From assembly GCA_964607965.1 (NCBI GenBank), contig CAZSMH010000001.1, forward strand, positions 20,132 to 84,131: a DNA stretch of 64,000 nt, written 5' to 3'. Positions 2,410 to 64,000 of the stretch are shown here, piece by piece. Origin of the DNA: an uncultured Christensenellaceae bacterium (GTDB lineage: Bacteria; Bacillota; Clostridia; Christensenellales; SZUA-584). The number at the start of each line of letters is the position of its first letter. Positions within the stretch are counted from its first letter, which is position 1. Below the pieces are notes generated by a model. That model saw nothing but the letters and a program-made list of their open reading frames with translations, searched no databases and was not told where the DNA came from. Both the position numbers and the translations under genes were made by a program.

Positions 2410-2427
2410 CCAAATCTTTCAAAAGTC

Positions 2428-9018: not shown

Positions 9019-9046
9019 TTAAGTTACATTAACGGAGGACGAAAAT

Positions 9047-9358
9047 ATGATTATAACTACTATAGAAAACCTTGGAAAATCATTCGAACCGCTTGGCATG
9101 GTGAGGGGGTCGATGGTACAGAGTAAACACATTGGTAAAGATTTTATGGCGGGCTTTAAGACAGTGGTGGGGGGAGAGTTAAAGGGATATACCAAAATGC
9201 TCGAGGAAGCACGGGAGATTTCTCTTAAGAGGATGGCTGAACAGGCATCGATACTGGGCGCGGATGCAGTAGTTGGCGTTCGGTTTACTTCAAGTTCCGT
9301 GATGCAGGGCGCGGCCGAGGTTACGGCATACGGCACGGCAATACGTTTTATAAAATAA
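9047..9358 (+). CDS. YbjQ/UPF0145 family (heavy-metal-binding-like) protein
   Basis: ACGGAGGA SD. Sequence pattern G.V.G..V.S....KD......K...GGE...Y..ML..AR..A...M...A..LGA.AVVGVRF is typical of the YbjQ family. Confidence 0.8.
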   Translation: MIITTIENLGKSFEPLGMVRGSMVQSKHIGKDFMAGFKTVVGGELKGYTKMLEEAREISLKRMAEQASILGADAVVGVRFTSSSVMQGAAEVTAYGTAIRFIK

Positions 9359-9414
9359 TGCGTACAAGCCAAGGCTATTGCTGCAAATTATTGCGTATAG
9401 AGATTTAATTATAT

Positions 9415-10488: not shown

Positions 10489-10493
10489 AAGCT

Positions 10494-31982: not shown

Positions 31983-32624
31983 GTGCGGTTAGAAAAAATC
32001 GTAAAAATCGGCGAATTGTTAGAGTTTAATATTAACGGAAAGACTTACAGGACAAAACTTCAGGATATTAACGGCGATTTGTTTACTGTGTTTAATCCTA
32101 CGGATAGGGGAATTCCGGTACCGATTTCGCAGCAAGATATAATCAATGTAAGATTTTATCGCACTTCCGGAGTATTTGTTTTTGATGCGCAGATGCAGGA
32201 GAGATTTACAAAAGGCAGATTACAGCTTTGCAGACTTTTGATTGCTTCGGAGGTTAAAAAATTTCAGAGGCGCCAAAGTTACAGACTTCCTATTGTACTT
32301 CGGGTTTTGATTTGGCGTGTGGATGACGAGGAACAAAAAAAGTATAAGGCGAAAACAGTTGATATATCGGAACACGGCATACTTCTCACCTGTTATGACG
32401 TATTTCCAAAAGGGACTAAGCTGTGTGCTGAAATTAATATGACAGATAAGGAAAAGAGAATATTTGAAGCGGAGGTACTACGTTGTGAGCAGCCGTTCAA
32501 TGACAGCGAGCCTAAAAAGATGGTGTTGATGTATATTAACATATCGGAAAGCGACAGAAATTATCTGGGGCGTTTTATTATGCGGCAGCAGATACTAGCA
32601 CGAAAAAAGGGTACCAGGATGTGA
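31983..32624 (+). CDS. YcgR-like PilZ-domain protein (putative c-di-GMP flagellar brake)
   Basis: GTG start after an AAGGAG SD; PilZ motifs RRQSYR (RxxxR) and DISEHG (DxSxxG). Confidence 0.8.
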   Translation: MRLEKIVKIGELLEFNINGKTYRTKLQDINGDLFTVFNPTDRGIPVPISQQDIINVRFYRTSGVFVFDAQMQERFTKGRLQLCRLLIASEVKKFQRRQSYRLPIVLRVLIWRVDDEEQKKYKAKTVDISEHGILLTCYDVFPKGTKLCAEINMTDKEKRIFEAEVLRCEQPFNDSEPKKMVLMYINISESDRNYLGRFIMRQQILARKKGTRM

Positions 32625-32628: not shown

Positions 32629-33402
32629 ATGAACACTGAACAAAGCGCACAGCGGCTATGGCAAAAATATGACAGAGAAAGAACGCTGGAAAATAAGAAC
32701 GAATTGGTGCTGCACTATCTTCCGCAGGTCAAAAGCATTGTACTGCGGCTTATGCCTATTTATAAAGCATACAGCAACTATGACGATATGTTAAGCTGCG
32801 GCATACTCGGACTTATGGATGCTATCGAAAAGTATGATACCAAACGCGATGTTAAATTTGAATACTACGCAGCAATGAGAATAAAAGGAGAGATTATAGA
32901 CAATATACGGAAACAAGACTGGGCGCCGTCCAGCCTGCGGCGCAAAATAAAGGCGATAAGCCAAGCGTACTATGATTTAGAAAACCGTTATAATCGGGAG
33001 CCTACTGATAAAGAGGTGGCTGATTATCTTAATATCGATGAGGATGATCTTTTCAGCACACTTGGAAAATCACAAATGTTCAACATCATTCATTTTGAAG
33101 AACTGATTCAAAACGATGCTGTTTGGGAACTTGGCATACAGAGCCAGGGACTATCTCCCGAAGAGGAAGTGGAAAGCCGTGAGATGGTGCATATACTCGG
33201 GGATTTGATTGATAACCTTCCTGAAAAAGAAAAGCTTGTTATAACGCTGTATTATTATGAGGAAATGACTTTAAAAGAAGTGGCTGCTGTTATTGGGGTG
33301 TCGGAATCCCGGATATCACAGATACACTCCAAAGCAGTGATGAGACTTAGGTCGAAAATGCAGTTTGTCGGGGTATACGAGAACGCAAAGGCACGCGGAT
33401 AA
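32629..33402 (+). CDS. fliA: Flagellar sigma factor sigma28 (FliA/SigD)
   Basis: Region 2 (YDDMLSCGILGLMDAIEKYD...F..YA..RIKGEI.D..RKQDW) and region 4 HTH (LKEVAAVIGVSESRISQIHSKA). Confidence 0.95.
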   Translation: MNTEQSAQRLWQKYDRERTLENKNELVLHYLPQVKSIVLRLMPIYKAYSNYDDMLSCGILGLMDAIEKYDTKRDVKFEYYAAMRIKGEIIDNIRKQDWAPSSLRRKIKAISQAYYDLENRYNREPTDKEVADYLNIDEDDLFSTLGKSQMFNIIHFEELIQNDAVWELGIQSQGLSPEEEVESREMVHILGDLIDNLPEKEKLVITLYYYEEMTLKEVAAVIGVSESRISQIHSKAVMRLRSKMQFVGVYENAKARG

Positions 33403-33422: not shown

Positions 33423-34085
33423 ATGGGTATTACTGAATACGCTTTTGTTACATATGTATTCATATTGCTGTGTTTTGGTATATGGCTGTATGGAAAGTTT
33501 ATACATGCTACACATAGAAAAAGCTCAAAAAAACAAGGCGGTGACTATGAAAAAGAGCAAAGACTTTTTAAGCTGTATCAGAACATTGAAGATATGCTTG
33601 CAAGCTTTGAAGAATTTGCAGACGAGGCTCGTGCGGATATTGAACTGAAAAAATCAGAGATAAAAGAAATGCTTGACGAGACAAAACATATCAGCAAGAC
33701 TGCACAAAATGTAGAATCGACCGATGTTTTTTTAAAGTCTAGCGTGTCGGAAACGCTTCCGGAGGTGACCGCCGCTAACGCAGCTGCATTAGCGGCATAT
33801 AAAGCTGCTGCCAATATTAAAATGGTGGCTGAGGCGGCACTTGAAACACCGGAAGAAAAAGCGGATATTAATGAAAAGGTTGCTGATAACGATAAAGAGC
33901 AGGGGACAGAAAAAAACAGTGTTGTCGCTAACGGGTTGTCATCGCTTGAGAGAGTACAGCTTAAAATACCCGACAAAGTTGCGGAAATGAGTGCGAAGGG
34001 CATTGATATTAACGATATTGCCAAGCAGCTTAATATTTCCGTGCGCGAGGTAGCGCTTGCAATGAAAATAAAGAAAGTACAATAA
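33423..34085 (+). CDS. Hypothetical membrane-anchored coiled-coil protein with C-terminal HTH-like segment
   Basis: N-terminal TM (FVTYVFILLCFGIWLYGKF), charged helical middle, C-terminus GIDINDIAKQLNISVREVALAMKI. Sits immediately after fliA. Confidence 0.55.
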   Translation: MGITEYAFVTYVFILLCFGIWLYGKFIHATHRKSSKKQGGDYEKEQRLFKLYQNIEDMLASFEEFADEARADIELKKSEIKEMLDETKHISKTAQNVESTDVFLKSSVSETLPEVTAANAAALAAYKAAANIKMVAEAALETPEEKADINEKVADNDKEQGTEKNSVVANGLSSLERVQLKIPDKVAEMSAKGIDINDIAKQLNISVREVALAMKIKKVQ

Positions 34086-34101
34086 CTGCTTAACAAAAAC
34101 C

Positions 34102-34129
34102 TAAAGTGGAGTTGAGGTTTTGCCGATAA
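34102..34129 (+). promoter_or_regulatory. Sigma28 (FliA/SigD) promoter
   Basis: cTAAAGt (TAAA 34102-34105), 16-nt spacer, GCCGATAA (34122-34129); 19 nt upstream of the ATG at 34148. Confidence 0.75.
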
Positions 34130-34147: not shown

Positions 34148-34903
34148 ATGCTCAGAAGCTTTTATATTGCAGGCACAGGCATGTTGGCTCAAAGAGCCAG
34201 AATGAATGTCTTGACGAATAATATAACTAACATAGATACAACAGGTTATAAAAAAGATGCGATTGTCTCCCGATCGTTTGCAGATTTGTTAATACAGAAC
34301 AAAAAGGATCCGTACTTGCTTAATAAATCAGCATTAATAGGTCCGCAGAATACCGGAGCCCATGTAGATATTATTGCAACCGTATTTTCTCAGGGAGATC
34401 TTGAGGAAACAAGGCGGCAAACGGATTTGGCGCTGGAGGGGCAGGGCTTTTTTACAGTACAGACTAATGAGGGGAACAGATATACCCGTGACGGCAGTTT
34501 TTCCGTAGGAAATGACGGTTGCCTTATAACCGGCGACGGCTGTTATGTATCTGGATATAACGGAAGAATATATGTGGGCCACGGCTCGTTTGCTGTTGAC
34601 ACACTGGGAAATGTGACCGTAGATGGACAAATAACAGACAGACTAAGAATCGTTGATTTTGATGATTTATCCGGGCTTAGGAAAACAGGCGAGAATCTGT
34701 ATGCCAATTACTCGAATCAGCCGGTCAGACAGGCACAAAACGTTAAGGTTATGCAAGGATATCTTGAGGTTTCAAATGTTAACATGGCGGACGAAGTAGT
34801 AAACATGGTTGAAGTAAACCGCGCTTTTGAGATGAATCAGCGGGTGCTTAGGATAATTGATGAATCACTGTCAAAGTCAGTTAACGAAGTAGGAAGGGTA
34901 TAG
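34148..34903 (+). CDS. Flagellar basal-body rod protein, FlgF/FlhO-like paralog
   Basis: N-terminus AGTGMLAQRARMNVLTNNITNIDTTGYK and C-terminus QGYLEVSNVNMADEVVNM+EVNRAFE; GAGGTGG SD. Confidence 0.8.
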   Translation: MLRSFYIAGTGMLAQRARMNVLTNNITNIDTTGYKKDAIVSRSFADLLIQNKKDPYLLNKSALIGPQNTGAHVDIIATVFSQGDLEETRRQTDLALEGQGFFTVQTNEGNRYTRDGSFSVGNDGCLITGDGCYVSGYNGRIYVGHGSFAVDTLGNVTVDGQITDRLRIVDFDDLSGLRKTGENLYANYSNQPVRQAQNVKVMQGYLEVSNVNMADEVVNMVEVNRAFEMNQRVLRIIDESLSKSVNEVGRV

Positions 34904-34913
34904 GGTGGTCGGA

Positions 34914-35666
34914 ATGCAGACTTTATACGCGGCAGGGCTTGGCGTTAAGATGCAGCAGCATCGTGTGGGTGTAATCGCAAACAATATTGCGAATATAAAT
35001 ACTGCAGGATTCAAAAGCCAGCGGGTCAGCTTTAAAGATGCGCTGTATACTGAATTGATAAATCCCGCAGACACGGCGAGTACCGAAAATCTGCAGCAGG
35101 GTACGGGTGTTTTGATAGTCTCCACTTCCAGGGATTTTTCCTTTGGGAATCCGCTTAATACCGGCAATTCTCTTGACTTATATATTGACGGCAACGGGTT
35201 TTTTACAGTGGCCGACAGCGACGGTGAAATAATGTATACGCGCAATGGGTGTTTCGGCGTTTCCAGCGAAGCGGACGGTCGTTATCTGGTAACCGCGCAA
35301 GGAAATTACATTCTGGATACCGACAATAACCGTATAAGCGTACCTTTGAATACGGATCAGATTACGGTCAGTCCGGAGGGATTGATAGCATTTGACGGTG
35401 TTTCAGCTGCAACTTTGCGGATAGTTGATTTTATGAACAAAGAAGGATTGCTGGCACAGGGAAACGGATGCTATATCGAGACGGAAGTGTCCGGACCGCC
35501 CGTGGCCTCGGAGGCACAAATATCGCAGGGGGTTATGGAGTCTTCAAATGTTGATTTGGCTGTTGAACTATCAAGATTGATTCGTGCCCAAAGAGCGTTT
35601 TCGCTTGCAGGAAGGGCTGTGAGCATATGGGATCAGATGGCGTCAAACGCTAACAATATAAGATAA
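34914..35666 (+). CDS. flgG: Flagellar distal rod protein FlgG/FlhP-like
   Basis: ATG 34914 is preferred (AGGGTGG SD); an in-frame GTG at 34905 is also possible. IANNIANINTAGFK ... QGVMESSNVDLAVELSRLIRAQRAF. Confidence 0.8.
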   Translation: MQTLYAAGLGVKMQQHRVGVIANNIANINTAGFKSQRVSFKDALYTELINPADTASTENLQQGTGVLIVSTSRDFSFGNPLNTGNSLDLYIDGNGFFTVADSDGEIMYTRNGCFGVSSEADGRYLVTAQGNYILDTDNNRISVPLNTDQITVSPEGLIAFDGVSAATLRIVDFMNKEGLLAQGNGCYIETEVSGPPVASEAQISQGVMESSNVDLAVELSRLIRAQRAFSLAGRAVSIWDQMASNANNIR

Positions 35667-39418: not shown

Positions 39419-39904
39419 ATGCTCATTGAAACCGATAGATTCGGTTCTTTTGATACCAAGGATTCAAAGCTTATTGAATTTCCGCAGGGTTTGCCCGGGT
39501 TTGAGGAACTGCGTCAGTTTATTATTCTTGAGGTGCCGCAGACAAAACCCGTATACTGGCTGCAGTCAACGGAAAACAAATACATTGCTTTGCCTGTAAT
39601 ACTTTCGTTTGAGATAATGGATGATTATTATATAGATATCCGTGAAAACGAGCTTGAGGAACTGCAGGTTGAAAGCCAGAACGATTTGCTGGTAATGAAT
39701 GTTGTTGTGATTCCGGGTAAAATTGAAGAGATGACAGTAAATCTTGCCGCGCCCATTATTATTAATGCTGTGCGCGGTATAGGAAAGCAGATTATTATTG
39801 ACGCAAAGACGATGCCTATTCGCTGGCCGGTATATGAGGCAATCATGAAGAGTCTTGACAAAGGAGGAGAGCAGGATGCTGGTGTTGTCGAGGAAAACGG
39901 GTGA
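39419..39904 (+). CDS. fliW: Flagellar assembly factor FliW (CsrA antagonist)
   Basis: I.F..GLPGFEELR.F.I........P..WLQS.E......PV is the FliW signature. Confidence 0.9.
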   Translation: MLIETDRFGSFDTKDSKLIEFPQGLPGFEELRQFIILEVPQTKPVYWLQSTENKYIALPVILSFEIMDDYYIDIRENELEELQVESQNDLLVMNVVVIPGKIEEMTVNLAAPIIINAVRGIGKQIIIDAKTMPIRWPVYEAIMKSLDKGGEQDAGVVEENG

Positions 39905-40303: not shown

Positions 40304-41419
40304 TTACCCGAGCAGCGAGAGCACGTTCTGCGGAGCTGCATTGGCCTGAGCCAACATAGCGGTCGCAGCCTGTACAAGTATGCTGTTCTGGGTGAATACT
40401 GTCATCTCTTTTGCCATATCGAGGTCTCTGATACGGCTTTCGGCAGCCTGCAGGTTTTCTGCGGATGTATCGAGGTTGCTTATCTTGTGCTCAAGCCTAT
40501 TCTGCACAGCACCCAGGTTTGCGCGCTGTTCCGATACATCATTGATTGCCGCGTTGACAGTGCCTATGGCATCGTTTGCATTGCTCTGAGTATCCACGGC
40601 AGCAGAGGTCAAACCAAGATTGGCAGCCCGCATATCACCTATTGTTATTGCCAGGCTTTCATCTTTGTTTGCGCCTGTATGTATCTGGGCAGCTGTACCG
40701 GACACGGTAAACGCAAGAGCCTGACCAACGAAGGAATCAGCAGCATGCGAAGCCATAGTGATGCTTACAGTTCTTCCGCCTCCGAAATCAAGGCTGACTG
40801 TGCCAGCACCTGCCGGCTGTGCCTGGACCACCGCTGTGCTGTCGGAAGCCAGCGTGAAGGTGTAGGCTGTGCCTGCGGCACCCGGACGCGTGATGTTGAT
40901 TGTATCAGCCGTTGAGAATCCTTGGATTGTGATGTCGGTGACACCAAGAACACCGGGTCTTACAGCCGAAGCGCCCGTCACCGAAGCGGTTGAACCAAAG
41001 CTGCCGTTGAGCAATACCTTGTTGTTGAATGTGGTTTTGGTTGCGATGTCGTCGATTTCCAGCTTAAGCTCGGCAAACTCGGAGTTCAATGCAGCGCGGT
41101 CAACAGAATCATCGTTAGTGTCGGTTGCTGACTGTACAGCCAGTTCGCGCATACGCTGAAGTATGGAGTGGGTTTCTGTAAGGGCGCCTTCAGCCGTCTG
41201 CACAAGCGATATGGCATCTTCACTGTTCTTAGAGGCCATCTGCAGGCCGCGGATCTGCGCTCTCATTTTTTCTGAAATCGCAAGACCGGCAGCATCGTCG
41301 CCGGCACGGTTGATTCTAAAGCCTGACGACAATTTCTCGGTTGATTTTGATACGCTAGTGTTGTTCATAGCGTACTGACGATGAGTATTCATCGCCATAA
41401 TGTTGTTGTTAATACGCAT
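40304..41419 (-). CDS. fliC: Flagellin
   Basis: MRINNNIMAMNTHRQ...LSSGFRINRAGDDAAGLAISEKMRAQIRGL at the N-terminus and LAQANAAPQNVLSLL at the C-terminus. Confidence 0.97.
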   Translation of the reverse strand: MRINNNIMAMNTHRQYAMNNTSVSKSTEKLSSGFRINRAGDDAAGLAISEKMRAQIRGLQMASKNSEDAISLVQTAEGALTETHSILQRMRELAVQSATDTNDDSVDRAALNSEFAELKLEIDDIATKTTFNNKVLLNGSFGSTASVTGASAVRPGVLGVTDITIQGFSTADTINITRPGAAGTAYTFTLASDSTAVVQAQPAGAGTVSLDFGGGRTVSITMASHAADSFVGQALAFTVSGTAAQIHTGANKDESLAITIGDMRAANLGLTSAAVDTQSNANDAIGTVNAAINDVSEQRANLGAVQNRLEHKISNLDTSAENLQAAESRIRDLDMAKEMTVFTQNSILVQAATAMLAQANAAPQNVLSLLG

Positions 41420-41526: not shown

Positions 41527-41554
41527 ATATCGGCAATATAGAAAGAATACTTTA
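41527..41554 (-). promoter_or_regulatory. Sigma28 (FliA/SigD) promoter of flagellin
   Basis: The minus strand reads GTTAAAGTATTCTTTCTATATTGCCGATAT: TAAA, 16-nt spacer, GCCGATAT. Confidence 0.85.
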
Positions 41555-47495: not shown

Positions 47496-48938
47496 TTGAA
47501 TGCAACACCGGTGTTTGCAGAAACACCAAACGTTGCGGCTCCCACACCGCCTTGTTGCGGCAGCGGCTTAAAACAGACTAAGGTCAAGCCGATTTCAGCA
47601 GAATTTAAGCAGCAGCTTAAAAACTGTCTTGAAAACGAATACGCGGCTATCGCACAGGCGCTTTTTGGAAGCTGCAGCACAGATGATAACAGCATGGTCG
47701 TCAATTCCACAGCACAAACCGGAATTGCTGGCATTCTCGAAGGATTCGGATTGCTGGATTATCAAACAGACGCCCTCTTTGTACCCGAGCATGATGTTCC
47801 GTCAGCGTTGCCTAAAGAAGCACAGGGGCATACGGTTGCCGCTGATATGGCAGCCGTGCTTTCGAAATGGATGCAGGTTAACGAGAAACCAACGGGGAGT
47901 GGAATGTCTGAGCAATTTGCATGGATGCTATCTAACAAACAGTTCAATACTCTGCCGCCTGACACGCAGCAGCAGATATTGAGCATAGTAAAAGAGTATC
48001 TGGGCTCCCTCGAGAGTACCAACAGCGACAAAACCGTTAACGCGGCGGCGTGCCAAACAACTTTGCCGAATACAGACAGCGCACAAGATTTGCTCAAATT
48101 GCTGCTGCATATAAAAACGGTGCAAAATCCGGCGCCAAACGCGGAAACATTGTCGGCTGACAGTTCTGATAGTAAGCCGATTGTTTTGCAGCGCCCTGTA
48201 GAGGAAAATGCGCAAACTGCGGGCAAAGCTGCTGTTTTTAAAGACAGCCCGGGTAGTGTTCAGGATGCCGCGGATAAAACTGCAAAGCCTCAAGCGCAAA
48301 TAAAAGACGTCGGCACATCAAACACAGCGCAGCAGAGCGAAGACGGAAATCCAAAGGCTGCATCTGCGGCTGTGAGTCTTCAGGCCGGCGTTGATGGAAC
48401 GGCGGCGGCATCAAGCAGCGTACAAAAGGCAGATGCTTCAACCGCAACTGCTAAGGAAAGCGCAGCGCCACAGCTTTCGTCTGAGCAGCCCGATTTTGTC
48501 AGGGACAATGTCGTGCGTATTGTTGACAAGATAAGTACGCAGTTCGAAGGCGGCCGGCACGAGTTTGATGTAGAACTAAAGCCGGAGTATCTTGGCAAGT
48601 TAAACATTAAGCTTGTAATGGAAAACGGCAACATTCGGATGGCTATAAAATCAGGCGATTTAGCAGTCAAAGGAATGATATGCGATCAGGCGCCGGCTTT
48701 ACAGAATCTGCTGAGAGACAAGGGAATAACCGTAACGAGTATAGACATCTCTTACCAGAGCAACGAATCATTAGCGGACGGCGGCTACGAAGCCCACAGG
48801 CAAAACGGCCGTCAAAGCGGCGGTAATAAAGGCAGCGGAAGTTCTTTAGAGTGGCTGACCGGAACCGGTCTTTATGATGCGATGTCGGGGGCTGCGGATT
48901 ATTATCTTTACGGCAGCTCTTTCGAGTATTTAGCCTAA
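47496..48938 (+). CDS. fliK: Flagellar hook-length control protein FliK
   Basis: TTG start 8 nt after an AGGAGGG SD; Q/A/S/T/P-rich ruler region; C-terminal Flg_hook domain (EFDVELKPEYLGKLNIKLVMENGNIRMAI...). Confidence 0.85.
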   Translation: MNATPVFAETPNVAAPTPPCCGSGLKQTKVKPISAEFKQQLKNCLENEYAAIAQALFGSCSTDDNSMVVNSTAQTGIAGILEGFGLLDYQTDALFVPEHDVPSALPKEAQGHTVAADMAAVLSKWMQVNEKPTGSGMSEQFAWMLSNKQFNTLPPDTQQQILSIVKEYLGSLESTNSDKTVNAAACQTTLPNTDSAQDLLKLLLHIKTVQNPAPNAETLSADSSDSKPIVLQRPVEENAQTAGKAAVFKDSPGSVQDAADKTAKPQAQIKDVGTSNTAQQSEDGNPKAASAAVSLQAGVDGTAAASSSVQKADASTATAKESAAPQLSSEQPDFVRDNVVRIVDKISTQFEGGRHEFDVELKPEYLGKLNIKLVMENGNIRMAIKSGDLAVKGMICDQAPALQNLLRDKGITVTSIDISYQSNESLADGGYEAHRQNGRQSGGNKGSGSSLEWLTGTGLYDAMSGAADYYLYGSSFEYLA

Positions 48939-55205: not shown

Positions 55206-56375
55206 ATGAAGGATTTTAGATTTTTGAACAAAACAGAAATCGTATTTGGAACTAAAGCCCAGAACGCTGTTGGCGAACTTACAAAAAAGTACGGGAGCAA
55301 GGTGCTCCTCCATTACGGCGGCGGACACATAAAAAAGGCAGGTTTATATCAGCAGATTACAGAACTGCTGAAAAAAGAAGGCGTCAGTTTTATAGAACTG
55401 GGCGGCGTATCGCCCAATCCCAGACTATCTATGGTAAGGGAAGGGATAGAAATCTGCAGACACAACGGCGTTGATTTTATACTTGCAGTGGGCGGAGGCA
55501 GTGTTATAGATTCGGCTAAGGCAATTGCTGTAGGTGTGCATTATAACAAAGATGTCTGGGACTTCTATATTTCTGACGCTAGACCAAAAGAGGCGCTTGG
55601 AGTAGGTGTTGTGCTTACCATACCAGCCGCGGGCAGCGAGGCAAGCAACAGCAGCGTTATCACAGACGAATCAAATAATAATAAACGCTTTCTTGATGAC
55701 GATTTGCTGCGTCCGATGTTTTCGTTGCTTAATCCGCAGCTGACTTTTTCGCTGCCGCCGTTTCAAACTGCATGCGGTGCAACCGATATCATGGCACATA
55801 TTATGGAACGGTACTTCACGCGCGTAAAGGATGCAGAAATTACCGACAGGATGTGTGAAGCTGCATTAAAAACGGTTATCGGCAATGTTAGTAAAGTACT
55901 TAAAAAACCGGATGATTATGCTGCCCGCGCAGAGATTATGTGGACAGGGACGCTGGCTCATAATGGCCTTTTAGGAACAGGCCGAATTGAAGATTGGTCA
56001 TCTCACATGATTGAGCATGAGATAAGCGGCCTTAACGATGTCGCGCACGGCGCAGGTCTTGCTGTTGTTTTTCCGGCATGGATGAGCTATGTATATAAAC
56101 ATGACGTATCGTTGTTTGCGCAGTTTGCTTCAAGGGTTTGGAATGTGGAAGTTGACTATAATAATCTGCAGGCTACAGCGCTTGAAGGAATCAGCCGTAC
56201 AAAATCGTTTTTTAAATCAATCGGTCTGCCTACCAGCTTGGGTGAAATCGGCATTTGTTCCAAGCATTACAGCCGTATTGCGGCAAACTGCCGCCGGGCT
56301 GATGGTAAGACGGTAGGAAACTTTGTAAAACTGCAAAGCGATGATATAATTGAAATACTTAAACTGGCTGAATAA
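55206..56375 (+). CDS. Iron-containing alcohol dehydrogenase (NADH-dependent butanol dehydrogenase-like)
   Basis: GGGSVIDSAKAIA and HxxxH metal-site region (MIEHEISGLNDVAHGAGLAVV); GAGGAG SD. Confidence 0.9.
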   Translation: MKDFRFLNKTEIVFGTKAQNAVGELTKKYGSKVLLHYGGGHIKKAGLYQQITELLKKEGVSFIELGGVSPNPRLSMVREGIEICRHNGVDFILAVGGGSVIDSAKAIAVGVHYNKDVWDFYISDARPKEALGVGVVLTIPAAGSEASNSSVITDESNNNKRFLDDDLLRPMFSLLNPQLTFSLPPFQTACGATDIMAHIMERYFTRVKDAEITDRMCEAALKTVIGNVSKVLKKPDDYAARAEIMWTGTLAHNGLLGTGRIEDWSSHMIEHEISGLNDVAHGAGLAVVFPAWMSYVYKHDVSLFAQFASRVWNVEVDYNNLQATALEGISRTKSFFKSIGLPTSLGEIGICSKHYSRIAANCRRADGKTVGNFVKLQSDDIIEILKLAE

Positions 56376-56443
56376 GCCGCTTTTAACAAGGGTTGTCGCA
56401 AGAGCGGCAGCCCTTATTAAAATGATACGCTTTTAAAAGCGGC
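56376..56443. repeat. 10-bp perfect inverted repeat enclosing the ADH hairpin, plus a 14-bp palindrome
   Basis: GCCGCTTTTA (56376-85) and TAAAAGCGGC (56434-43); CGCTTTTAAAAGCG (56428-41) is a perfect palindrome. Confidence 0.6.
56388..56415 (+). terminator. Hairpin after the ADH gene (weak U-tract)
   Basis: AAGGGUUGUCG-caagag-CGGCAGCCCUU (11 bp including G-U pairs), then AUUAAAAU. Confidence 0.45.
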
Positions 56444-56524
56444 AAAAAACGGTGGCATGTGAGCTTATTGTAAGTATGATAATTGCATATTTACTGTGTA
56501 AAAAATAAGATTATGTAAAAAACT

Positions 56525-56552
56525 TTGTCAGCGGCGCTGCTTATGCTATAAT
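56525..56552 (+). promoter_or_regulatory. SigmaA-type promoter with extended -10 for rex
   Basis: TTGTCA (56525-30), 16-nt spacer, TGcTATAAT with the -10 at 56547-52. The predicted TSS lies downstream of the track start 56555. Confidence 0.6.
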
Positions 56553-56575
56553 ACGTGAAAAGAAAGGAGGCACAT

Positions 56576-57214
56576 ATGCAGGAAAACAGAATACCTGAAG
56601 CAGTGATACACAGATTGCCTAAATATTACAGATATCTGTCAGAACTTGAGGCGGCAGGTATGGAACGCGTTTCATCTGCCCGTATGAGTACGGACATGAG
56701 ACTAAATGCCTCCCAGATTCGCAGGGATTTAAACTGTTTCGGAGGCTTCGGCCAGCAGGGCTACGGCTATCAGGTAATACGCTTGAAGCAGGAGATAATG
56801 AAGATACTTGGTGTAGGCTCTTCACATAAAGCGGTTATAGTCGGTGTCGGCAACATTGGACAAGCGCTGCTCAAATACAAGCATTTTGCACAGGAAGGTT
56901 ATCAGATCATTGCGGCTTTTGATTCGGATGAGAGCATTATAGGCCACGATTTGGGCGGTATAGAGGTTAAACCTATGAGTGAGCTTGAAGGCTTTATTTA
57001 TAAGAATGCTGTAGATATCGGCATTGTTTCTGTGCCAAAAAAATATGCGCAAAGAATTACAGACGAATTGGTCAGTCTAGGCGTTAAAGGTATTTGGAAC
57101 TTTGCACCGGTTGACGTACAGGTTCGCCGCGGAGTCAGCATAGTAAATGTTCATTTAAGCGATGGTTTATATGTATTATCGTACAGGATGAGGCAGAACA
57201 GTGAAAACAATTAG
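56576..57214 (+). CDS. rex: Redox-sensing transcriptional repressor Rex
   Basis: The ATG at 56576 follows an AAAGGAGG SD. IPEAVIHRLPKYYRYL, Rossmann motif VIVGVGNIGQAL, NFAP. Confidence 0.95.
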   Translation: MQENRIPEAVIHRLPKYYRYLSELEAAGMERVSSARMSTDMRLNASQIRRDLNCFGGFGQQGYGYQVIRLKQEIMKILGVGSSHKAVIVGVGNIGQALLKYKHFAQEGYQIIAAFDSDESIIGHDLGGIEVKPMSELEGFIYKNAVDIGIVSVPKKYAQRITDELVSLGVKGIWNFAPVDVQVRRGVSIVNVHLSDGLYVLSYRMRQNSENN

Positions 57215-57593
57215 CATAAGAACAAGCAAGCGTAACCAGATGGTGGATATTACAAGGGAAATACAAAAGTGTGTCAATGAAAGCGGTATTCAAAGTGGCC
57301 TTGTGTGTATTTTTGTGCCGCACACCACGGCGGGCATATCCATCAATGAAAATGCAGACCCGGATGTAATACGGGATGTCATGTTTGCTTTAGAACGAAC
57401 TGTGCCAAACAGCGGCTTTGCACATATCGAAGGCAATTCTGATGCACATACCAAAGCTCAGATAACAGGTTTTTCTTTAACCGTAATTATTGATGACGGC
57501 AGGCTTAATCTTGGCACATGGCAAAGCATCTATTTTTGCGAATTTGACGGGCCTCGGAACAGACGCGTAAACGTAAAAGTGATTGCTGATTAA
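57201..57593 (+). CDS. YjbQ/UPF0047 family protein (secondary thiamine-phosphate synthase-like)
   Basis: GTG start overlapping the rex 3' end. VPHTTAGISINENADPDV..D........P......H..GN.DAH.K...G. Confidence 0.85.
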   Translation: MKTISIRTSKRNQMVDITREIQKCVNESGIQSGLVCIFVPHTTAGISINENADPDVIRDVMFALERTVPNSGFAHIEGNSDAHTKAQITGFSLTVIIDDGRLNLGTWQSIYFCEFDGPRNRRVNVKVIAD

Positions 57594-57689
57594 ATATGAT
57601 ATATTTGTTAAACAGTACGCATGTCTGTTTACAAAGTTCAAAAAATATTGTATGTTAAGCTATGCAATACCAAATGGGGGAGAGAGGTC

Positions 57690-59222
57690 ATGCGTAGAAA
57701 ACAGCATCAACACTTCAAAGCATTGCTTCTTGCATTGGGAGTTCTTGTTGTTTCATTGATAGTAGTATTAATTTTGATGTTTACCGGCGGTGCCTTGAAC
57801 AGCGAGGAACGGCAAGTCCGGTTTATTGACGCTGCGCATTTTTTGCCCGGCATTTCGGTTGGGGGTGTTGATGTTTCGGGCAAAAGTTTCAAAGAGGCGC
57901 TTGGAGATGAGCAGATTTTGGCCGGAGCAAGAGCTTTTGAAGAGAGCTTTTCATACTCGTTTAACGTGGTTAATACCACACATACTTTTTCTGCGGCAGA
58001 GCTTGGGCTTGTGGCAAATACAGAACAGCTGCTAAAGGAAGCAATATGCTTCGGGCAGCATGGAGAAGGAGATGTAGTCAGCCAGCAAAAAGAGCAGCTG
58101 GAAAACGGCAATGTAAATTTTGATTTCGGGGTATACGGCGAGGAACCCATAGTGAAAGCGCGGATAACGGAGCTAAAGCCACAAATTGATGCTCTTCCGG
58201 CTGATGCTATGTATGAGATAGCCGATGATATAAAGAGCAATCCAAAGGCGGTATGCCTTGAGGATGTAGAGGGCGTTACGATAATTGCAGAGACTGTGGG
58301 AGCTGATGTTGACGCGGCTGCGCTGGCGAAGCTTATATGCAGCAATGTAAACAGCGGCAATTATGATATTATAGATGCGCCTGCCATTACTGCATATCCC
58401 AAAGTGGATACAGAAATGCTTAAGGCCAACACAGTAAAAAGAGGCGAGATGACATCGCTGTTTAACGTAAGGCCGCTTAATAAAGCTAAACGTGTTAAAA
58501 ATATAAAAATTTTCGCAAATATAATAAACGGGACGATAATCAATCCGGGTGAAACATGGTCTTTGAACGAGACCGCAGGTCCAAGAAATGAAACAACTGC
58601 AAAGACTATCGGCTGGGAAGCTGCGCCCGGAATAAGCAACGGACGATATGAAGAACAGCTTGGCGGCGGCGTATGCCAGGTATCCAGCACAGTTTATAAT
58701 GCTGCTCTGCGTGCCGAAATGACAATTGTTGAGAGAAGACCTCACAGCTGGCCTTCGTCATATGTGCCTGAGGGACTTGACGCGACTATAAGCACTGGGG
58801 GGCCCGACCTTGTTATAAGCAATCCGACCGACAGCCCTGTTTATATGGTGGCATGCGTGGACGATGAAGAATATAAGCTTACCGTACAGTTTTTCGGTGC
58901 GTCCCAGCCTCACGGCTTAACCATTGATTTCATCAGCAAAAAGGTAAGTACGGGAAAGGCACCGGAACCGAAGTATTATTATAATTCGCCTACTACGCCG
59001 GACGGCGAGCCTATAGGCGAGGGTAAAACATATGAATGGATAAAACCGCGCGGAAGCCAGACGTGGAGGGTATACAAACAGTATAAGGATGCAGACGGAA
59101 ATGTAATAAAAACGGAAACATATGGCAAAGATGTTACATACAAGGCTTATGCGGGCGTTTATTATGTAAACGGTCCCGATCCGTCTCTGGCGCCGTCCGT
59201 GCCCGATGCGGGTGAAGGCTGA
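57690..59222 (+). CDS. VanW-family protein (TM anchor, PG-binding-like domain, VanW domain, G5-like tail)
   Basis: The ATG at 57690 follows a GGGGGAGAGAGG SD. ISVGGVDVSGKS; VanW core GGGVCQVSSTVYNAALRAEM...RRPHS. Confidence 0.85.
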   Translation: MRRKQHQHFKALLLALGVLVVSLIVVLILMFTGGALNSEERQVRFIDAAHFLPGISVGGVDVSGKSFKEALGDEQILAGARAFEESFSYSFNVVNTTHTFSAAELGLVANTEQLLKEAICFGQHGEGDVVSQQKEQLENGNVNFDFGVYGEEPIVKARITELKPQIDALPADAMYEIADDIKSNPKAVCLEDVEGVTIIAETVGADVDAAALAKLICSNVNSGNYDIIDAPAITAYPKVDTEMLKANTVKRGEMTSLFNVRPLNKAKRVKNIKIFANIINGTIINPGETWSLNETAGPRNETTAKTIGWEAAPGISNGRYEEQLGGGVCQVSSTVYNAALRAEMTIVERRPHSWPSSYVPEGLDATISTGGPDLVISNPTDSPVYMVACVDDEEYKLTVQFFGASQPHGLTIDFISKKVSTGKAPEPKYYYNSPTTPDGEPIGEGKTYEWIKPRGSQTWRVYKQYKDADGNVIKTETYGKDVTYKAYAGVYYVNGPDPSLAPSVPDAGEG

Positions 59223-59272
59223 GAAACAGCTTATTGCAGAGCTTTTAAAGGAAGCGTGAATCAGGTTAACTG

Positions 59273-61027
59273 ATGGAGGAAAAGATGGTCAAAAAAGCAC
59301 AAATTGAGATAAAAGAAACTGATATTGAGATAAAAGGTACTGATAAGGATGAAAAAAAACGCAGGATATTCTTGATTGCGGCTGCAAGCGTTTTGTTTGC
59401 AGCAATAGTTATATCTGTAATTTTGATTTTGGGTAATGCGCAGGCGAGCGAGGATAATATTGAGAGGATACTGGAATTCGGCAAATTGACAGACGGAGTA
59501 TCAATAGGAGGAGTCGACATTTCAGGAATGACGGAGCAGGAAGCGCGTGCCGCTACCGAGAACCTGCCTGATAGATTGCTGGCAAATACCAGCTTGTCGT
59601 TTGACATTGACGGCGCCCACGCAACATTGGGGGCACAGATATTAGGCCTTGCGACGGATTATGAAGAGATTTTCTCAAGTGCCGTTAAATTCGGCCGTTC
59701 AGGCAGCTTTGAAGAGCGCGTATCAGATATTAAGGCGGCGTTTGAAGGCCGGGCGGCGTTTGATATTATAATTAAAGCGGACGAGGCCTCTGTAAAGGCT
59801 GGCCTTGCTTCAAACTATGATACATTCAATAATGATGCGCGAGATGCTTCATACATTTTTATGCCCAACGGTTATCTTGAAGACGGCACACCGTTTGAAC
59901 CGGGCGAATTCAACGGCAAGGCAATAACATACCCTGAAACGCTTGTCCGGATTCCGGAAGAGCAAATGCCAAATCCGCTAAGATATCAGTACTGGAAAAA
60001 AACAAAGTATATAAAAGACAGCAGGCCGGAGGATGCCAATATTGCGCGCTTTCTGTATATGGAGGAAGAAAAAGGCATAAATACAGATATGGATGCCTTA
60101 GCAGCGCTTATTATTCAAGCGGTGGAAAAAGCGGATTTTTCCACGGTGATTGTTGTGCCCGTACAGGTGTCAGAGCCCACAGTTACGCTTGATCAGGTTA
60201 AGGCAAAAACTCAGCTTGTTTCATCGTGGACAACTTGGTACGGACACAGCTCTAGTAAAAACAGAGCTTGGAACGTAGGGCTGCTGGCAAGCAAGATAAA
60301 CGGCACGGTGCTTGAGCCTAATGTACAGTGGTCAATAAACAAGAACATCGGGAAACGCACTATAGCGGGCGGCTTTAAAAAAGCCGGGGCTTTAAGCGGC
60401 GGAAGGACGATTGAAGATGACGTCGGGGGCGGGGTATGCCAAGTGGCAAGCACACTCTACAATGCCGCTATCCGTTCGGATATAAGTGTGCCCGAACAGC
60501 ACCGCCATACTATTCCTTCGGCTTACTTGCCTATTGCTCTCGATGCGGCCATAAGCGTCAGCCCCGATCTTGCGCTGCTAAATCAGCATGACGTGCCAGT
60601 GTTTATTGTGTCGTATCTTGATTATAAGAATAAGAACATTACGTTTGAGATATATGGACCGACCGTTGTGCACGAAACGTACGGCGATGTGATACTCGAT
60701 TTTGAAGGTAAAAAAACGGGCACAGGGGCAACGCCCGCTACAATTAATTATTACAACCAAAAGAAGACGCCGGACGGAGATACGATTCCTGAAGGCGGTA
60801 AAGTTGTATATCGAGATGCGCGTGCGGCCGTATACTGCAGGGCTTATATCATATATCGCGACCTTACAGGTAAAGAGCTTGAAAAAAAGGTGCTGTATAA
60901 TGACAGTTATAATTCGTTTACAGGACAGGTATACCACAACTATCCCGAAGGAGGTCCTGTAGTTCCGCCCGGAAATGAGGAACCGCCCGTGGGAGGAGGA
61001 GAAGAACCGCCCGAAGATACGCCTTAA
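59273..61027 (+). CDS. VanW-family protein, tandem paralog with Pro/Glu/Gly-rich tail
   Basis: VSIGGVDISGMT; GGGVCQVASTLYNAAIRSD...HRHT. The start is 59273 or 59285 (GGAGGA SD 5 nt upstream of the latter). Confidence 0.85.
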   Translation: MEEKMVKKAQIEIKETDIEIKGTDKDEKKRRIFLIAAASVLFAAIVISVILILGNAQASEDNIERILEFGKLTDGVSIGGVDISGMTEQEARAATENLPDRLLANTSLSFDIDGAHATLGAQILGLATDYEEIFSSAVKFGRSGSFEERVSDIKAAFEGRAAFDIIIKADEASVKAGLASNYDTFNNDARDASYIFMPNGYLEDGTPFEPGEFNGKAITYPETLVRIPEEQMPNPLRYQYWKKTKYIKDSRPEDANIARFLYMEEEKGINTDMDALAALIIQAVEKADFSTVIVVPVQVSEPTVTLDQVKAKTQLVSSWTTWYGHSSSKNRAWNVGLLASKINGTVLEPNVQWSINKNIGKRTIAGGFKKAGALSGGRTIEDDVGGGVCQVASTLYNAAIRSDISVPEQHRHTIPSAYLPIALDAAISVSPDLALLNQHDVPVFIVSYLDYKNKNITFEIYGPTVVHETYGDVILDFEGKKTGTGATPATINYYNQKKTPDGDTIPEGGKVVYRDARAAVYCRAYIIYRDLTGKELEKKVLYNDSYNSFTGQVYHNYPEGGPVVPPGNEEPPVGGGEEPPEDTP

Positions 61028-61094
61028 GGAGGCGGCTGATTATGCCGATTAGCCGAAATTCCGCTTTGTTAAGGCGCTTGCTATTCATTCACTG

Positions 61095-61123
61095 TTGACG
61101 AAATTTTATTTTGGTGATAATAT
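61095..61123 (+). promoter_or_regulatory. SigmaA-type promoter with extended -10; implies a ~140-nt leader
   Basis: TTGACG (61095-100), 17-nt spacer, TGaTAATAT with the -10 at 61118-23. Confidence 0.55.
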
Positions 61124-61274
61124 AAACTAAAATATGTATCAATATTGGTACAAAAATTATGGTCGAGAAAAAGCCGATGACAGAATTTCTGGACCGCGTA
61201 GTGTTCTTGAAACATTGGGCCGGAACTAAGAAATATCATATCGTCTTTAAGAACCATGTTAAAAAGGAGAAAAA

Positions 61275-61556
61275 ATGTTTCAGGACAGGACACTAACGTG
61301 CGCAGATTGCGGAGAAAGCTTTGTATTCTCTGCTTCAGAGCAAGAATTCTATCACGATAAGGGCTATGAAAACGACCCGAAAAGGTGTCTATCATGTCGC
61401 CAGCAAAGAAAACAGCAAAAAAGGTCGAGCGACCGCCCGATGTTTGATGCTGTTTGTGCTGAATGCGGTGCGGAAACAAAGGTGCCGTTTCAGCCGACCG
61501 GCGAGCGGCCTGTTTATTGCAGCGATTGTTTTAAGGCTAGAAAAGACCGGTATTAA
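61275..61556 (+). CDS. Double CxxC zinc-ribbon protein (CxxC-x17-CxxC type)
   Basis: AAAAGGAG SD. CADCGESF...CLSCRQQR and CAECGAETKVPFQP...PVYCSDCF; basic linker. Confidence 0.8.
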   Translation: MFQDRTLTCADCGESFVFSASEQEFYHDKGYENDPKRCLSCRQQRKQQKRSSDRPMFDAVCAECGAETKVPFQPTGERPVYCSDCFKARKDRY

Positions 61557-61570
61557 AAATTTAACAAAAA

Positions 61571-61603
61571 AGCGCCGTATTCGTACGAATATGGCGCTTT
61601 TTG
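61571..61603 (+). terminator. Rho-independent terminator
   Basis: AGCGCCGTATTCG-ta-CGAATATGGCGCT (13 bp, 1 mismatch) followed by TTTTGC. Confidence 0.85.
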
Positions 61604-61639
61604 CATATGAGTAAAGCTGTTAATATACCAACAGCATGT

Positions 61640-61669
61640 TTGACGTTGTGCACATACCGGTGGTAGAAT
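61640..61669 (+). promoter_or_regulatory. SigmaA-type promoter with extended -10 for the Lrp-aminotransferase operon
   Basis: TTGACG (61640-45), 18-nt spacer, TGgTAGAAT with the -10 at 61664-69. Confidence 0.5.
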
Positions 61670-61703
61670 ACTTAAAGCTTAATTTAGGGACGGAGGGGTT
61701 TTT

Positions 61704-62198
61704 ATGAAAAATGGTTTGTGTGCCGAGATTCTTGATATGCTTGAAAATGACGCAAAAGTCAGCATAGAAGATATGGCTGTGCTTACCGGAGCATCCAGCG
61801 AAAAAATAAGAGAAGCCATTACGGCAATGGAAAAGGAAAAAATAATAGTTAAATATACAACAATAACAAACCGGGAAAAGCTTGGGGCTGATGAGGCGGA
61901 AGCATTGATCGAAGTTAAAGTTGTACCTAAAAGGGGACTTGGTTACGATGATCTTGCAGAACGCATATATCGCTTTTCGGAAGTTAAATCAGTATATCTG
62001 ATGTCGGGTACATACGATCTTTCAGTTGTAGTTAAAGCCGATACTATGAAACAAATATCCCAGTTTGTTTTTGAAAAACTGGCTGTGCTGGAGGGCGTTT
62101 CCAGTACGGTGACGCACTTTATTATGCGTAAATACAAAGAACAGGGAGTGATTTTGACAACGCGGGAGCAGGAGGAAAGGCTGGTAATTTCGCTATGA
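61704..62198 (+). CDS. Lrp/AsnC family transcriptional regulator
   Basis: N-terminal HTH (ILDMLENDAKVSIEDMAVLTGASSEKIREAI) plus a RAM/ACT-like C-terminal domain (V.LMSGTYDL.V.V.A). Confidence 0.85.
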   Translation: MKNGLCAEILDMLENDAKVSIEDMAVLTGASSEKIREAITAMEKEKIIVKYTTITNREKLGADEAEALIEVKVVPKRGLGYDDLAERIYRFSEVKSVYLMSGTYDLSVVVKADTMKQISQFVFEKLAVLEGVSSTVTHFIMRKYKEQGVILTTREQEERLVISL

Positions 62199-63367
62199 CA
62201 ACAGAGAGATTTGTTTCTTCGATAGTTAAAGAAGTCCCGCCCTCCGGAATACGCAAATTTTTTGATATTGCAAGCGAAATGAAAGACTGTATTTCGCTTG
62301 GTGTGGGAGAGCCCGATTTTGACACTCCGTGGAACATTCGGGAGAGCGCCATTTACGCGCTGGAATCCGGCCGTACGCATTACTCATCGAACCATGGCGG
62401 CACCGAACTGCGAAAGGCAATAAGTGATTATCTTGATTTGCGTTTCGGGCTTAGCTTTGATATCAATCAGATTCTTGTGACGGTAGGAGCCAGCGAGGCT
62501 CTTGATCTTGCGTTTCGCGCTATAATGAATCCCGGTGACGATGTTATTGCACCGTCACCCTCATATGTGGCATATATGCCGGGAATCAGCTTTGCAGGCG
62601 GCAACCCTGTGCCTATGGTACTGCGGGAAGAAAACCAATTCCGGATTACACCCGAAGACTTAAAAGCGGCTGTAACAAAAAAATCTAAAGCTATAATAAT
62701 CGCTTTCCCCAACAACCCGACAGGCGCAATAATGACAAAAGAGGATTATGAAAAAATCGTTCCAATAATAATTGAAAATGATTTGCTGGTTATATCAGAC
62801 GAGATATATGCAGAGCTTACATATGGTCGCCAACACTTTTCGATTGCGTCGCTGCCCGGAATGAAGGAGCGCACAATAGTAATTAACGGTTTTTCAAAAG
62901 CTTTTGCAATGACGGGTTTTAGGCTTGGATTTGCAGCGGGGCCAAAACCTTTGATAGACGCTATGGTAAAAGTGCATCAGTATTCCATGCTCTGTGCGCC
63001 CTCAATAAGTCAGGATGCTGGCATAGAAGCGCTGCGGTACGAGTGCGGCCATAAGTTTAACCAGGTTAAGGCTATGGTGGCTGAGTATAACAGGCGCAGG
63101 AGATATATGCACGGGGCATTTAATGATATGGGGTTGAGTTGTTTTGAGCCTTTCGGCGCTTTTTACACATTTCCAAATATTAGCTCAACAGGACTGACTG
63201 CGGACGAATTCTGCACACGGCTGCTATACGAAAAAAAGGTTGCCTGCGTGCCCGGGACGGCTTTCAGCGATAATATGAACAATTTTATTCGATGCTCGTA
63301 TGCTACATCGCTTGAGAAAATTAAGGAAGCAATGGTCAGAATTAAAACCTTTATTGAGAGCCTTTAA
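62195..63367 (+). CDS. Pyridoxal-phosphate-dependent aminotransferase, class I/II (AspC-like)
   Basis: GVGEPDFDTP, NPTG, and the PLP-lysine motif NGFSKAFAMTGFRLG. The start overlaps the Lrp stop. Confidence 0.9.
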   Translation: MTTERFVSSIVKEVPPSGIRKFFDIASEMKDCISLGVGEPDFDTPWNIRESAIYALESGRTHYSSNHGGTELRKAISDYLDLRFGLSFDINQILVTVGASEALDLAFRAIMNPGDDVIAPSPSYVAYMPGISFAGGNPVPMVLREENQFRITPEDLKAAVTKKSKAIIIAFPNNPTGAIMTKEDYEKIVPIIIENDLLVISDEIYAELTYGRQHFSIASLPGMKERTIVINGFSKAFAMTGFRLGFAAGPKPLIDAMVKVHQYSMLCAPSISQDAGIEALRYECGHKFNQVKAMVAEYNRRRRYMHGAFNDMGLSCFEPFGAFYTFPNISSTGLTADEFCTRLLYEKKVACVPGTAFSDNMNNFIRCSYATSLEKIKEAMVRIKTFIESL

Positions 63368-63423
63368 GTAAAAGCAGAAATTTGCTACTGCAAATAAGCG
63401 GTTAATGTTATGCATATTTGTGT

Positions 63424-63450
63424 TAAAGCAATTTCTTAGAATACCGATAA
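63424..63450 (+). promoter_or_regulatory. Sigma28-type promoter (TAAA-N16-CCGATAA)
   Basis: gTTAAAGc with TAAA at 63424-27 and aCCGATAAT with CCGATAA at 63444-50. The spacing is 1 nt shorter than the two strong sigma28 promoters in the window. 46 nt upstream of ATG 63497. Confidence 0.55.
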
Positions 63451-63496
63451 TACTATAAGAGATGGAATCTTTATAAATTGGCAAGGAGGCCGTAAT

Positions 63497-64000
63497 ATGA
63501 AGATTGATAATTATAGTATTATGCAAGGCAGCTCTCACAGCCTGCAAAAAAGCAGGAGTGAAACGGAACATCTGGAAGTGTGGAGTGATAGAGCCCAAGC
63601 TGACGAACCACCTTTTATTGTTGATATAAAAAACAGAGCTTTTGAGCTTTCTGCCGAAAAGACATGTAAAAAGAATGATTTGGGGGAGGAAGAAGAGGCG
63701 CAGAAGGACCCGCGCATCAAGCTTATTGAATCTTTTATATATCAGCTTACGGGCAAACGTATTAAATTTAAGTGTCAAACCCCAATAATTGAGCAAAACT
63801 ATAAAGCGGATACCCCCGGAATAACATTTGTTGTACGCGGTGGCAGACAGGACGGCAGCGGCTTCGGTATGGTTTACGAATATCAGGAAATTGTATCCGA
63901 GCAGGAAAATGTCAAGTTCGATTCCGGAGGATATGTGACTACGGCCGACGGGCGAACTATTGCCTTTAATCTTGAGTTCGAGATGTCGCGGGAGTTTTAC
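63497..64000 (+). CDS. Hypothetical protein, N-terminal 168 codons (runs off the window end)
   Basis: Not in the ORF track. AAGGAGG SD 7 nt upstream; open for 168 codons to the window edge (MKIDNYSIMQGSSHSLQKSRSETEHLEVW...KLIESFIYQLTGKRIKFK...). No family recognised. Confidence 0.65.
   Translation, partial: MKIDNYSIMQGSSHSLQKSRSETEHLEVWSDRAQADEPPFIVDIKNRAFELSAEKTCKKNDLGEEEEAQKDPRIKLIESFIYQLTGKRIKFKCQTPIIEQNYKADTPGITFVVRGGRQDGSGFGMVYEYQEIVSEQENVKFDSGGYVTTADGRTIAFNLEFEMSREFY

Follow-up and report, generated by a model that had tools for sequence, protein, structure and literature searches.

Why would a gene lying more than 8 kb beyond a flagellar locus be preceded by a promoter of the flagellar type? 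The question is raised by the end of a 64,000-nucleotide (nt) stretch of contig CAZSMH010000001.1 (assembly GCA_964607965.1) from an uncultured Christensenellaceae bacterium; this whole stretch is referred to below as the window. At positions 63424-63450 it carries a sequence resembling the promoters read by the flagellar sigma factor sigma-28 (FliA/SigD), followed by an open reading frame (ORF) that is cut by the window edge. We favour, with moderate confidence, the reading that this sequence is a functional sigma-28 promoter driving a stand-alone gene for a protein of ~343 amino acids (aa), composed of a DUF8379 domain and an SPM (self-processing module), which would be expressed late, exported, clipped in response to Ca2+ and possibly linked. 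The promoter class and the module are both known; the architecture and the regulon are undescribed.

A probable sigma-28-type promoter at the window edge

The site reads gtgTTAAAGcaatttcttagaatACCGATAATac. The initial annotation, made from the DNA letters without database searches, had placed TAAA at 63424-63427 and CCGATAA at 63444-63450, and direct reading shows both to be accurate to the base. A spacer of 15 nt (63428-63442) separates TAAA from the -10 element, and 11 of the 12 consensus positions agree, the sole mismatch being A for G at the first base of the -10 element. The G that follows TAAA, at 63428, fits the extended consensus that emerges from the 66 family sites described below. 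Two sites elsewhere in the window had been offered for comparison, one beginning at 34102 and the other in front of the flagellin gene. Both exist and match the consensus completely (Table 1); relative to them, the site studied here has a spacer shorter by 1 nt and the same A for G. The sigma factor expected to read it is also encoded in the window, and the Pfam sigma-70 regions r2, r3 and r4 are all present in this FliA.

The 46 nt noted earlier between the end of the -10 element and the start codon (ATG, 63497-63499) were confirmed, as was the perfect Shine-Dalgarno sequence, AAGGAGG at 63483-63489, which lies 7 nt before the ATG. Judged from the position of the -10 element, transcription would start near 63457-63458, leaving a 5' untranslated region of ~40 nt; a search of the leader against Rfam matched no family. 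Translation shows the frame to be open for 168 codons, from the ATG at 63497 to base 64000, and reproduces the peptide quoted in the initial annotation. The ORF is absent from the ORF track because ORFs running off the window end are not listed there.

How isolated is the gene? The distance of about 8.7 kb beyond the flagellar locus given at the outset agrees with our measurement, FliY ending at 54774, 8.65 kb upstream of the site. The redox, cell-wall and amino-acid genes said to lie between are those for an iron-containing alcohol dehydrogenase (ADH), Rex, two VanW-like proteins, an Lrp/AsnC regulator and an aminotransferase. The arrangement is thus that of class 3 sigma-28 (FliA/SigD) promoters, such as those of flagellin, motAB and chemoreceptor genes, in having TAAA(G)-N15-(G)CCGATAA 46 nt before the start and in sharing its genome with the gene for the cognate sigma factor. 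It differs from them in that the gene it precedes encodes no known flagellar, motor or chemotaxis component and sits outside the flagellar locus.

Other sigma-28-like matches at 11/12 occur in the window at 2497-2524 (+), 55876-55903 (-), 32763-32789 (+) and 47569-47595 (+). The first immediately precedes addB (2528); the remaining three fall within ORFs. These extra matches are probably due to chance and show the weakness of single-site matching. Window statistics alone are insufficient, one 11/12 match being weak evidence; the site at 63424-63450 becomes convincing only because its motif is conserved upstream of relatives.

Conservation of the promoter motif in the gene family

A metagenome scan supplied 80 loci of the gene family. 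The best match to TAAA-N14-17-GCCGATA[AT] was scored within 200 nt upstream of each family gene, with the opposite strand (n = 80), shuffles of the same regions and 459 other genes in the same loci as controls. A score of at least 10/12 was reached before 63 of the 80 family genes, at least 11/12 before 30 and 12/12 before 12. The opposite strand of the same regions reached 10/12 or more in 2 cases and the shuffled regions in ~4.5 per 80; among the control genes, 6.5% scored at least 10/12 and 1.1% at least 11/12. The loci range over 32-68% GC, and of 52 protein clusters formed at 60% identity, 36-37 were positive for the motif.

The median distance between the end of a family site and the start codon is 44 nt; of 66 spacers, 37 measure 15 nt and 26 measure 16 nt. 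At positions that were not scored, TAAA is followed by G and then a T-rich run, which is the classical extended -35 element TAAAGTTT. Proteobacterial loci show a flavour of their own, TCAAGT...GCCGTTAA/GCCGATAA. One locus with a poor promoter score, L021, has its family gene directly after fliS on the same strand, where it is probably transcribed with the fliS operon.

Given 63 of 80 loci against 6.5% of controls, the sigma-28-type promoter is a conserved attribute of the gene family, and the window copy is one instance of it. With FliA encoded in the same window, these comparisons uphold the promoter class first proposed for the site, and the window motif is, as far as sequence can tell, very probably a real flagellar sigma-28 promoter.

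The closest view of the transcription unit comes from an ortholog. When one genome per species was scanned, a single relative was obtained, L001, from a Christensenellaceae metagenome-assembled genome. Window positions 55206-64000 and L001 positions 1-10504 share the same gene order, comprising the ADH gene (partial), rex, both VanW-like genes, a 93-aa ORF, lrp and the aminotransferase gene, with 76-92% protein identity between neighbours; L001 has ~2.8 kb of additional sequence between the ADH and rex genes. The window fragment and the L001 family protein are 62.5% identical across 168 of 168 residues. The lower identity of the family protein relative to its neighbours points to faster evolution, which is typical of exposed proteins.

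At the equivalent place L001 carries a perfect TTAAAG-N15-GCCGATAT (TAAA-N16-GCCGATAT). The window and L001 hardly differ between the -35 element and the ATG; insertions and deletions abound in the distal half of the intergenic stretch. The L001 ORF has 343 codons, and 14 nt past its stop codon, between the family gene and radA, lies a strong intrinsic terminator (11046-11072, GCCCCgcgccaaGGGGC followed by a T-run). By this terminator the unit consists of promoter, leader, one gene and terminator, and is monocistronic.

Family architecture and the self-processing module

What does the promoter drive? The initial annotation recognized no family in the product. This was not borne out: the protein belongs to the uncharacterised Pfam DUF8379 joined to an SPM, and the informative half of it lies past the window edge. 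A word-index homolog search with the fragment returned nothing, and exhaustive phmmer alone found the relatives (E = 1e-20 over residues 1-168; 437 cluster representatives, mostly of 340-370 aa). Profile searching extended the family to >1,600 proteins, all unnamed, in Firmicutes and Proteobacteria. Relatives carry precomputed Pfam labels, DUF8379 (PF28292) for the N-terminal part and SPM (PF26745) for the rest. Scanned against Pfam and NCBIfam, the fragment and the complete L001 protein yielded no match or faint ones to EF-hand and LanM models, PF26745 and PF28292 not being among the models scanned. The identification therefore comes from the precomputed labels, a profile search of the PDB and Foldseek.

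The features of the module given here come from relatives; for the window organism the SPM is that expected from L001. Searched with the family profile, the SPM structures of FrpC, 6sjw and 6sjx, were matched at E = 5e-11 and 1e-9. An AlphaFold2 model of one relative, P0010 (predicted local distance difference test, pLDDT, 80.6), matched 6sjx in Foldseek at E = 5e-10, with a target-normalised template modelling score of 0.71 over 177 of 182 residues; nothing else was significant. On sequence and predicted fold, the C-terminal ~160 residues of the family thus form a homolog of the FrpC-type SPM.

In Neisseria FrpC, Ca2+ binding folds the module, which then cuts itself at its N-terminal edge, between Asp414 and Pro415; cleavage leaves an aspartyl anhydride that can form an isopeptide bond with a lysine, a reaction known as clip-and-link (PMC7078468). 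How much of this machinery is kept in the family? Asp-Pro is present in all 79 intact ORFs of the metagenome sample, always 158-160 residues from the C-terminus, and is invariant in alignments A1 and A2. Two EF-hand loops, D462-E474 and D499-D511, are likewise retained, together with an aromatic residue at W451 and the port residues L475, G477 and G491. The terminal Asp-Leu corresponds to D579-L580 of FrpC, with Asn in place of Asp in 11 of 79 proteins, and FrpC tolerates D579N (PMC7078468). The complete FrpC Ca2+ set, four EF-hand-like loops and a transient D414/D478/D579 site, is not found in the family, in which the two loops named are the only ones preserved in full.

FrpC-type modules, known from Neisseria meningitidis FrpC and FrpA and Actinobacillus ApxIVA (6SJW, 6SJX), are internal parts of large RTX exoproteins secreted by the type I pathway in Gram-negative pathogens (PMC7078468, PMC3034196), with FtxA as one known RTX case in a Firmicute (PMC7692872). 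The family resembles them in its last 160 residues, which start with Asp-Pro. It differs in that the SPM forms the C-terminus of a ~350-aa protein behind a sigma-28 promoter. The GGxGxD nonapeptide repeats and type I signal that mark the RTX clip-and-link subclass are lacking: RTX repeats were not found, apart from a single chance GGxGxD in 2 of 79 proteins, and the proteins end two residues after the SPM, with no C-terminal type I secretion signal. Neither a signal peptide, as the initial annotation had noted for the fragment, nor a transmembrane or hydrophobic segment was found in family proteins. The SPM is known from RTX toxins, but here it stands in a separate, non-RTX architecture tied to flagellar genes, and the protein does not fall into a well-known family unconnected with motility.

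In all the SPM literature that we found, the module is internal to type I-secreted RTX exoproteins (PMC7078468, PMC3034196, PMC7692872, PMC7846742, PMC12538545), and our literature search returned no paper that ties an SPM to flagella or describes the DUF8379-SPM family. The anhydride chemistry itself is being engineered as NeissLock (PMC7846742).

The N-terminal domain encoded in the window

The window holds a DUF8379-type N-terminal domain and ends ~17 codons before the expected Asp-Pro (Table 1). The DUF8379 label, which conveys no function, is carried by the N-terminal domains of the relatives with which the fragment aligns end to end, and the fragment is assigned through them, not by a direct score. 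Residues conserved in the family and present in the fragment are M1, I3, W29, G86, G124, Y127, E135 and G145. In the AlphaFold2 model a long N-terminal strand is followed by an acidic linker of low confidence, then by a conserved helix and a long beta-hairpin, the best-conserved part of the domain. Foldseek comparison of the domain with the PDB gave no match below E = 0.8, and the domain is thus without a recognised structural relative. The folds ranked highest, all pore formers (MACPF, gasdermin, Cry78Aa), reflect only long beta-hairpins, and a pore-former reading was dropped, the strands being largely polar and no membrane-like segment being present. Two minus-strand ORFs that overlap the gene, 63224-63796 and 63535-63720, were disregarded; it is the plus-strand frame that has hundreds of homologs.

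The end of the conserved helix leads into an LTGKxIK motif at residues 85-90. T85 is nearly invariant and G86 invariant or nearly so, while position 87 is Lys in 88% of the family and position 90 in 77% (alignment A4). These lysines would be candidate acceptors if a clipped fragment were to link to itself.

Links to motility genes

The initial annotation had suggested a late-class member of the motility regulon, and the neighbourhoods of relatives support it. In five loci (L003, L018, L021, L066, L071) the family gene stands among fliC, flaG, fliD, fliS and fliT, the family proteins of these loci being mutually only 46-58% identical. In ~11 loci, and in L087, the gene directly downstream, read from that same strand, encodes a chemoreceptor. 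The loci with this downstream methyl-accepting chemotaxis protein gene are mostly proteobacterial (L002, L007, L027, L034, L040, L047-L049, L058, L062, L073, L087), and there the two genes apparently form an operon.

Proposed function and alternatives

Computed results form the starting point: conservation of the promoter motif, a cognate sigma factor, family membership, homology and fold of the SPM, and invariance of Asp-Pro. From these we infer the following course of events. The gene would depend on FliA in vivo and be switched on together with the late flagellar genes. The protein would then be exported, the flagellar type III apparatus being the most plausible way out; this route is favoured because it is tied to the regulon and no other secretion signal (Sec, transmembrane, RTX or type I) is present. 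Outside, where Ca2+ is high, the SPM, presumed intact in this organism, would fold and cut the Asp-Pro bond, releasing an N-terminal fragment of ~185 aa with a reactive aspartyl anhydride at its C-terminus. That the chemistry would occur outside the cell is argued from the affinity of the FrpC SPM for Ca2+, ~150 uM (PMC7078468), although the divergent module of the family may differ. The anhydride might be hydrolysed, which would free the fragment, or might form an Asp-Lys isopeptide bond with a nearby protein; possible targets are the fragment itself, the filament or cap, the envelope, and a surface or partner cell.

Are there precedents for such a protein? Several non-flagellar proteins are expressed with, or exported by, the flagellar system, among them Campylobacter FspA, FlaC and the Fed proteins, and Yersinia YplA. 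Vibrio cholerae FrhA, an RTX-like adhesin, is controlled by the flagellar hierarchy (cited in PMC3034196). Late-flagellar co-regulation and the lack of a Sec signal make these proteins a plausible analogy for the family. They differ in having no sequence relationship to it and no self-processing module, and export of the family protein is a prediction.

Taken to its full extent, the proposal is of a conserved late-regulon member that is exported by the flagellum, undergoes Ca2+-triggered autoproteolysis at Asp-Pro and becomes bonded through the anhydride of its N-terminal domain to a lysine of the filament or cap, the envelope, a surface or a partner cell. We put this complete version forward only tentatively and regard it as rather doubtful. 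If this is true, clip-and-link would for the first time be seen in nature beyond RTX/type I proteins, and the transition from swimming to sticking would include a covalent step.

Why should this family matter? Sigma-28 regulons are regarded as well charted, yet a family of >1,600 members in two phyla, with the promoter in most lineages, has gone unstudied. The FrpC-type module is rare and turns ordinary amino acids into a protein anhydride, and even in Neisseria its natural role is still unclear; a non-RTX form that is compact and coupled to motility would be a tractable system for learning what clip-and-link is for. The family is also a candidate new cargo for the flagellar export apparatus, and its small, divergent SPMs could serve protein engineering. 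In annotation terms, a 'hypothetical protein' becomes a testable prediction.

Several observations weigh against the reading we favour. Among relatives, 17 of 80 are without a good site, and a flagellar or chemotaxis neighbour is present in only 16 of the 55 loci of at least 6 kb; most copies, the window gene included, stand alone without flagellar neighbours. Flagellar export substrates typically have disordered N-termini, unlike the ordered beta-strand that AlphaFold2 predicts here. The window ends before Asp-Pro, so that an intact SPM in this organism rests on one ortholog, and for every family member transcription, secretion and cleavage are predictions. The module of the family lacks the D419/D421/D423-D456 Ca2+ site and has a shortened third EF-hand; where FrpC has D478, it carries Pro, Thr or Ala, in no case Asp, and in FrpC an Ala at D478 strongly impairs the module (PMC7078468).

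Could the protein instead act inside the cell, as a regulator or switch that responds to Ca2+ and controls motility or chemotaxis, its activity being altered by Asp-Pro cleavage or by mere Ca2+ binding? We think this unlikely. The lack of a recognised secretion signal of any kind and the many proteobacterial copies directly upstream of chemoreceptor genes would suit such a role, and, two FrpC Ca2+ sites being missing from the family, its Ca2+ response may differ. The only SPM measured, however, needs Ca2+ far above cytosolic levels (PMC7078468), and an irreversible, single-use cleavage would make an odd regulator. The faster evolution of the protein relative to its neighbours also speaks for an exposed location, and several copies have as neighbours the genes of exported filament and cap proteins and of the chaperones that serve them.

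Export through the flagellum, as opposed to mere co-regulation with it, can be questioned too. A motile-phase adhesin or matrix protein might be co-regulated with flagella only and leave the cell by lysis, in vesicles or through an unrecognised system. Such a protein would resemble FrhA, which shows that sigma-28 control of non-flagellar adhesins is established (cited in PMC3034196). The ordered N-terminal strand fits the idea, as does the location of most family genes, which are not next to flagellar genes. We nevertheless hold it to be similarly improbable: a C-terminal type I signal and Sec and Tat signals are all lacking, the family spans Firmicutes and Proteobacteria alike, and an export route already linked with the regulon exists in the flagellar apparatus.

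Quite unlikely, in our judgement, is that the module has decayed in this organism, leaving an N-terminal domain that works unclipped with an SPM remnant as a Ca2+-binding or structural appendage. On the sequences of relatives, SPM decay does occur in some lineages of the window's own clade, and this counts against our favoured reading as well: P0001 and P0004, the nearest representatives at 50% clustering, have lost EF-hand 1 through an in-frame deletion of ~36-42 residues, and P0001 has Asp-Ala in place of Asp-Pro. The clade also replaces the Trp equivalent to W519. But the much closer, syntenic L001 (~63%) and P0002 have complete modules with Asp-Pro, and Asp-Pro is universal among the intact ORFs of the metagenome sample.

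That the motif is a chance resemblance, the gene being transcribed from another promoter or from the aminotransferase operon independently of sigma-28, is very improbable: although the window contains ~12 distinct sites of at least 11/12 against ~3 in shuffles, several of them inside ORFs, although the -10 element has A for G and the flagellar locus is 8.65 kb away, and although no terminator was found between the aminotransferase gene and the family gene, so that read-through is possible, the motif stands at the same position before 79% of family genes against 6.5% of controls, a perfect copy is present in L001, and no sigma-70-like site was found on the plus strand of the intergenic region.

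Features of the window

With sigma-28 promoter and N-terminal domain returned to their context, the coordinates of the features are collected in Table 1.

Table 1. Coordinates of the promoter, the cut gene, the sigma factor gene and the reference sites in the window
Feature	Positions	Strand	Remarks
-35 element TAAAG	63424..63428	+	TAAA at 63424-63427, then G; read directly
-10 element ACCGATAA	63443..63450	+	7/8 against consensus GCCGATAA
Predicted leader	63451..63496	+	Start expected ~7 nt past the -10 element, ~63457-63458; 5' untranslated region ~40 nt
First 168 codons of a ~343-codon gene	63497..64000	+	DUF8379-type N-terminal domain; edge cuts ~17 codons before the expected Asp-Pro
Residues 3-29, long N-terminal beta-strand	63503..63583	+	AlphaFold2, pLDDT 91-97; conserved M1, I3, E24, L26, W29
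Residues 72-85, conserved helix LIESFIYQLTG (KLIESFIYQLTGKRIKFK of the initial annotation)	63710..63751	+	AlphaFold2 model and family alignment
Residues 124-167, long beta-hairpin (GxGxxYEYxE...TADGRxIxFxLxFxMSR)	63866..63997	+	pLDDT 86-97; best-conserved part of the N-terminal domain
fliA/sigD, sigma factor expected to read the promoter	32629..33402	+	TIGR02479 FliA_WhiG, 239 bits (cut-off 189.6)
Reference sigma-28 site, 12/12	34102..34129	+	TAAAGT..GCCGATAA, 16-nt spacer; precedes FlgF/G-type rod genes
Reference sigma-28 site, 12/12	41527..41554	-	TAAAGT..GCCGATAT, 16-nt spacer; precedes flagellin (40304-41419, minus strand)

The flagellar locus of the window encodes FlhA, FlhF, FlhG, a YcgR-like PilZ protein, FlgK, FliW, flagellin, FliF, FliG, FliI, FliK, FlgE, MotB, FliM and FliY. 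Straight after fliA lies an ORF of 220 aa (region 33423-34129) without a Pfam or NCBIfam family. The two FlgF/G-type rod genes behind the reference site at 34102 occupy 34148-35666, and a sigma-28-type promoter in that place is unusual. The gene for the YcgR-like PilZ protein (31983-32624) is situated between flhG and fliA, and that for FliW (39419-39904) follows the flgK-flgL region; together the two point to cyclic di-GMP braking and FliW-type flagellin control in this organism.

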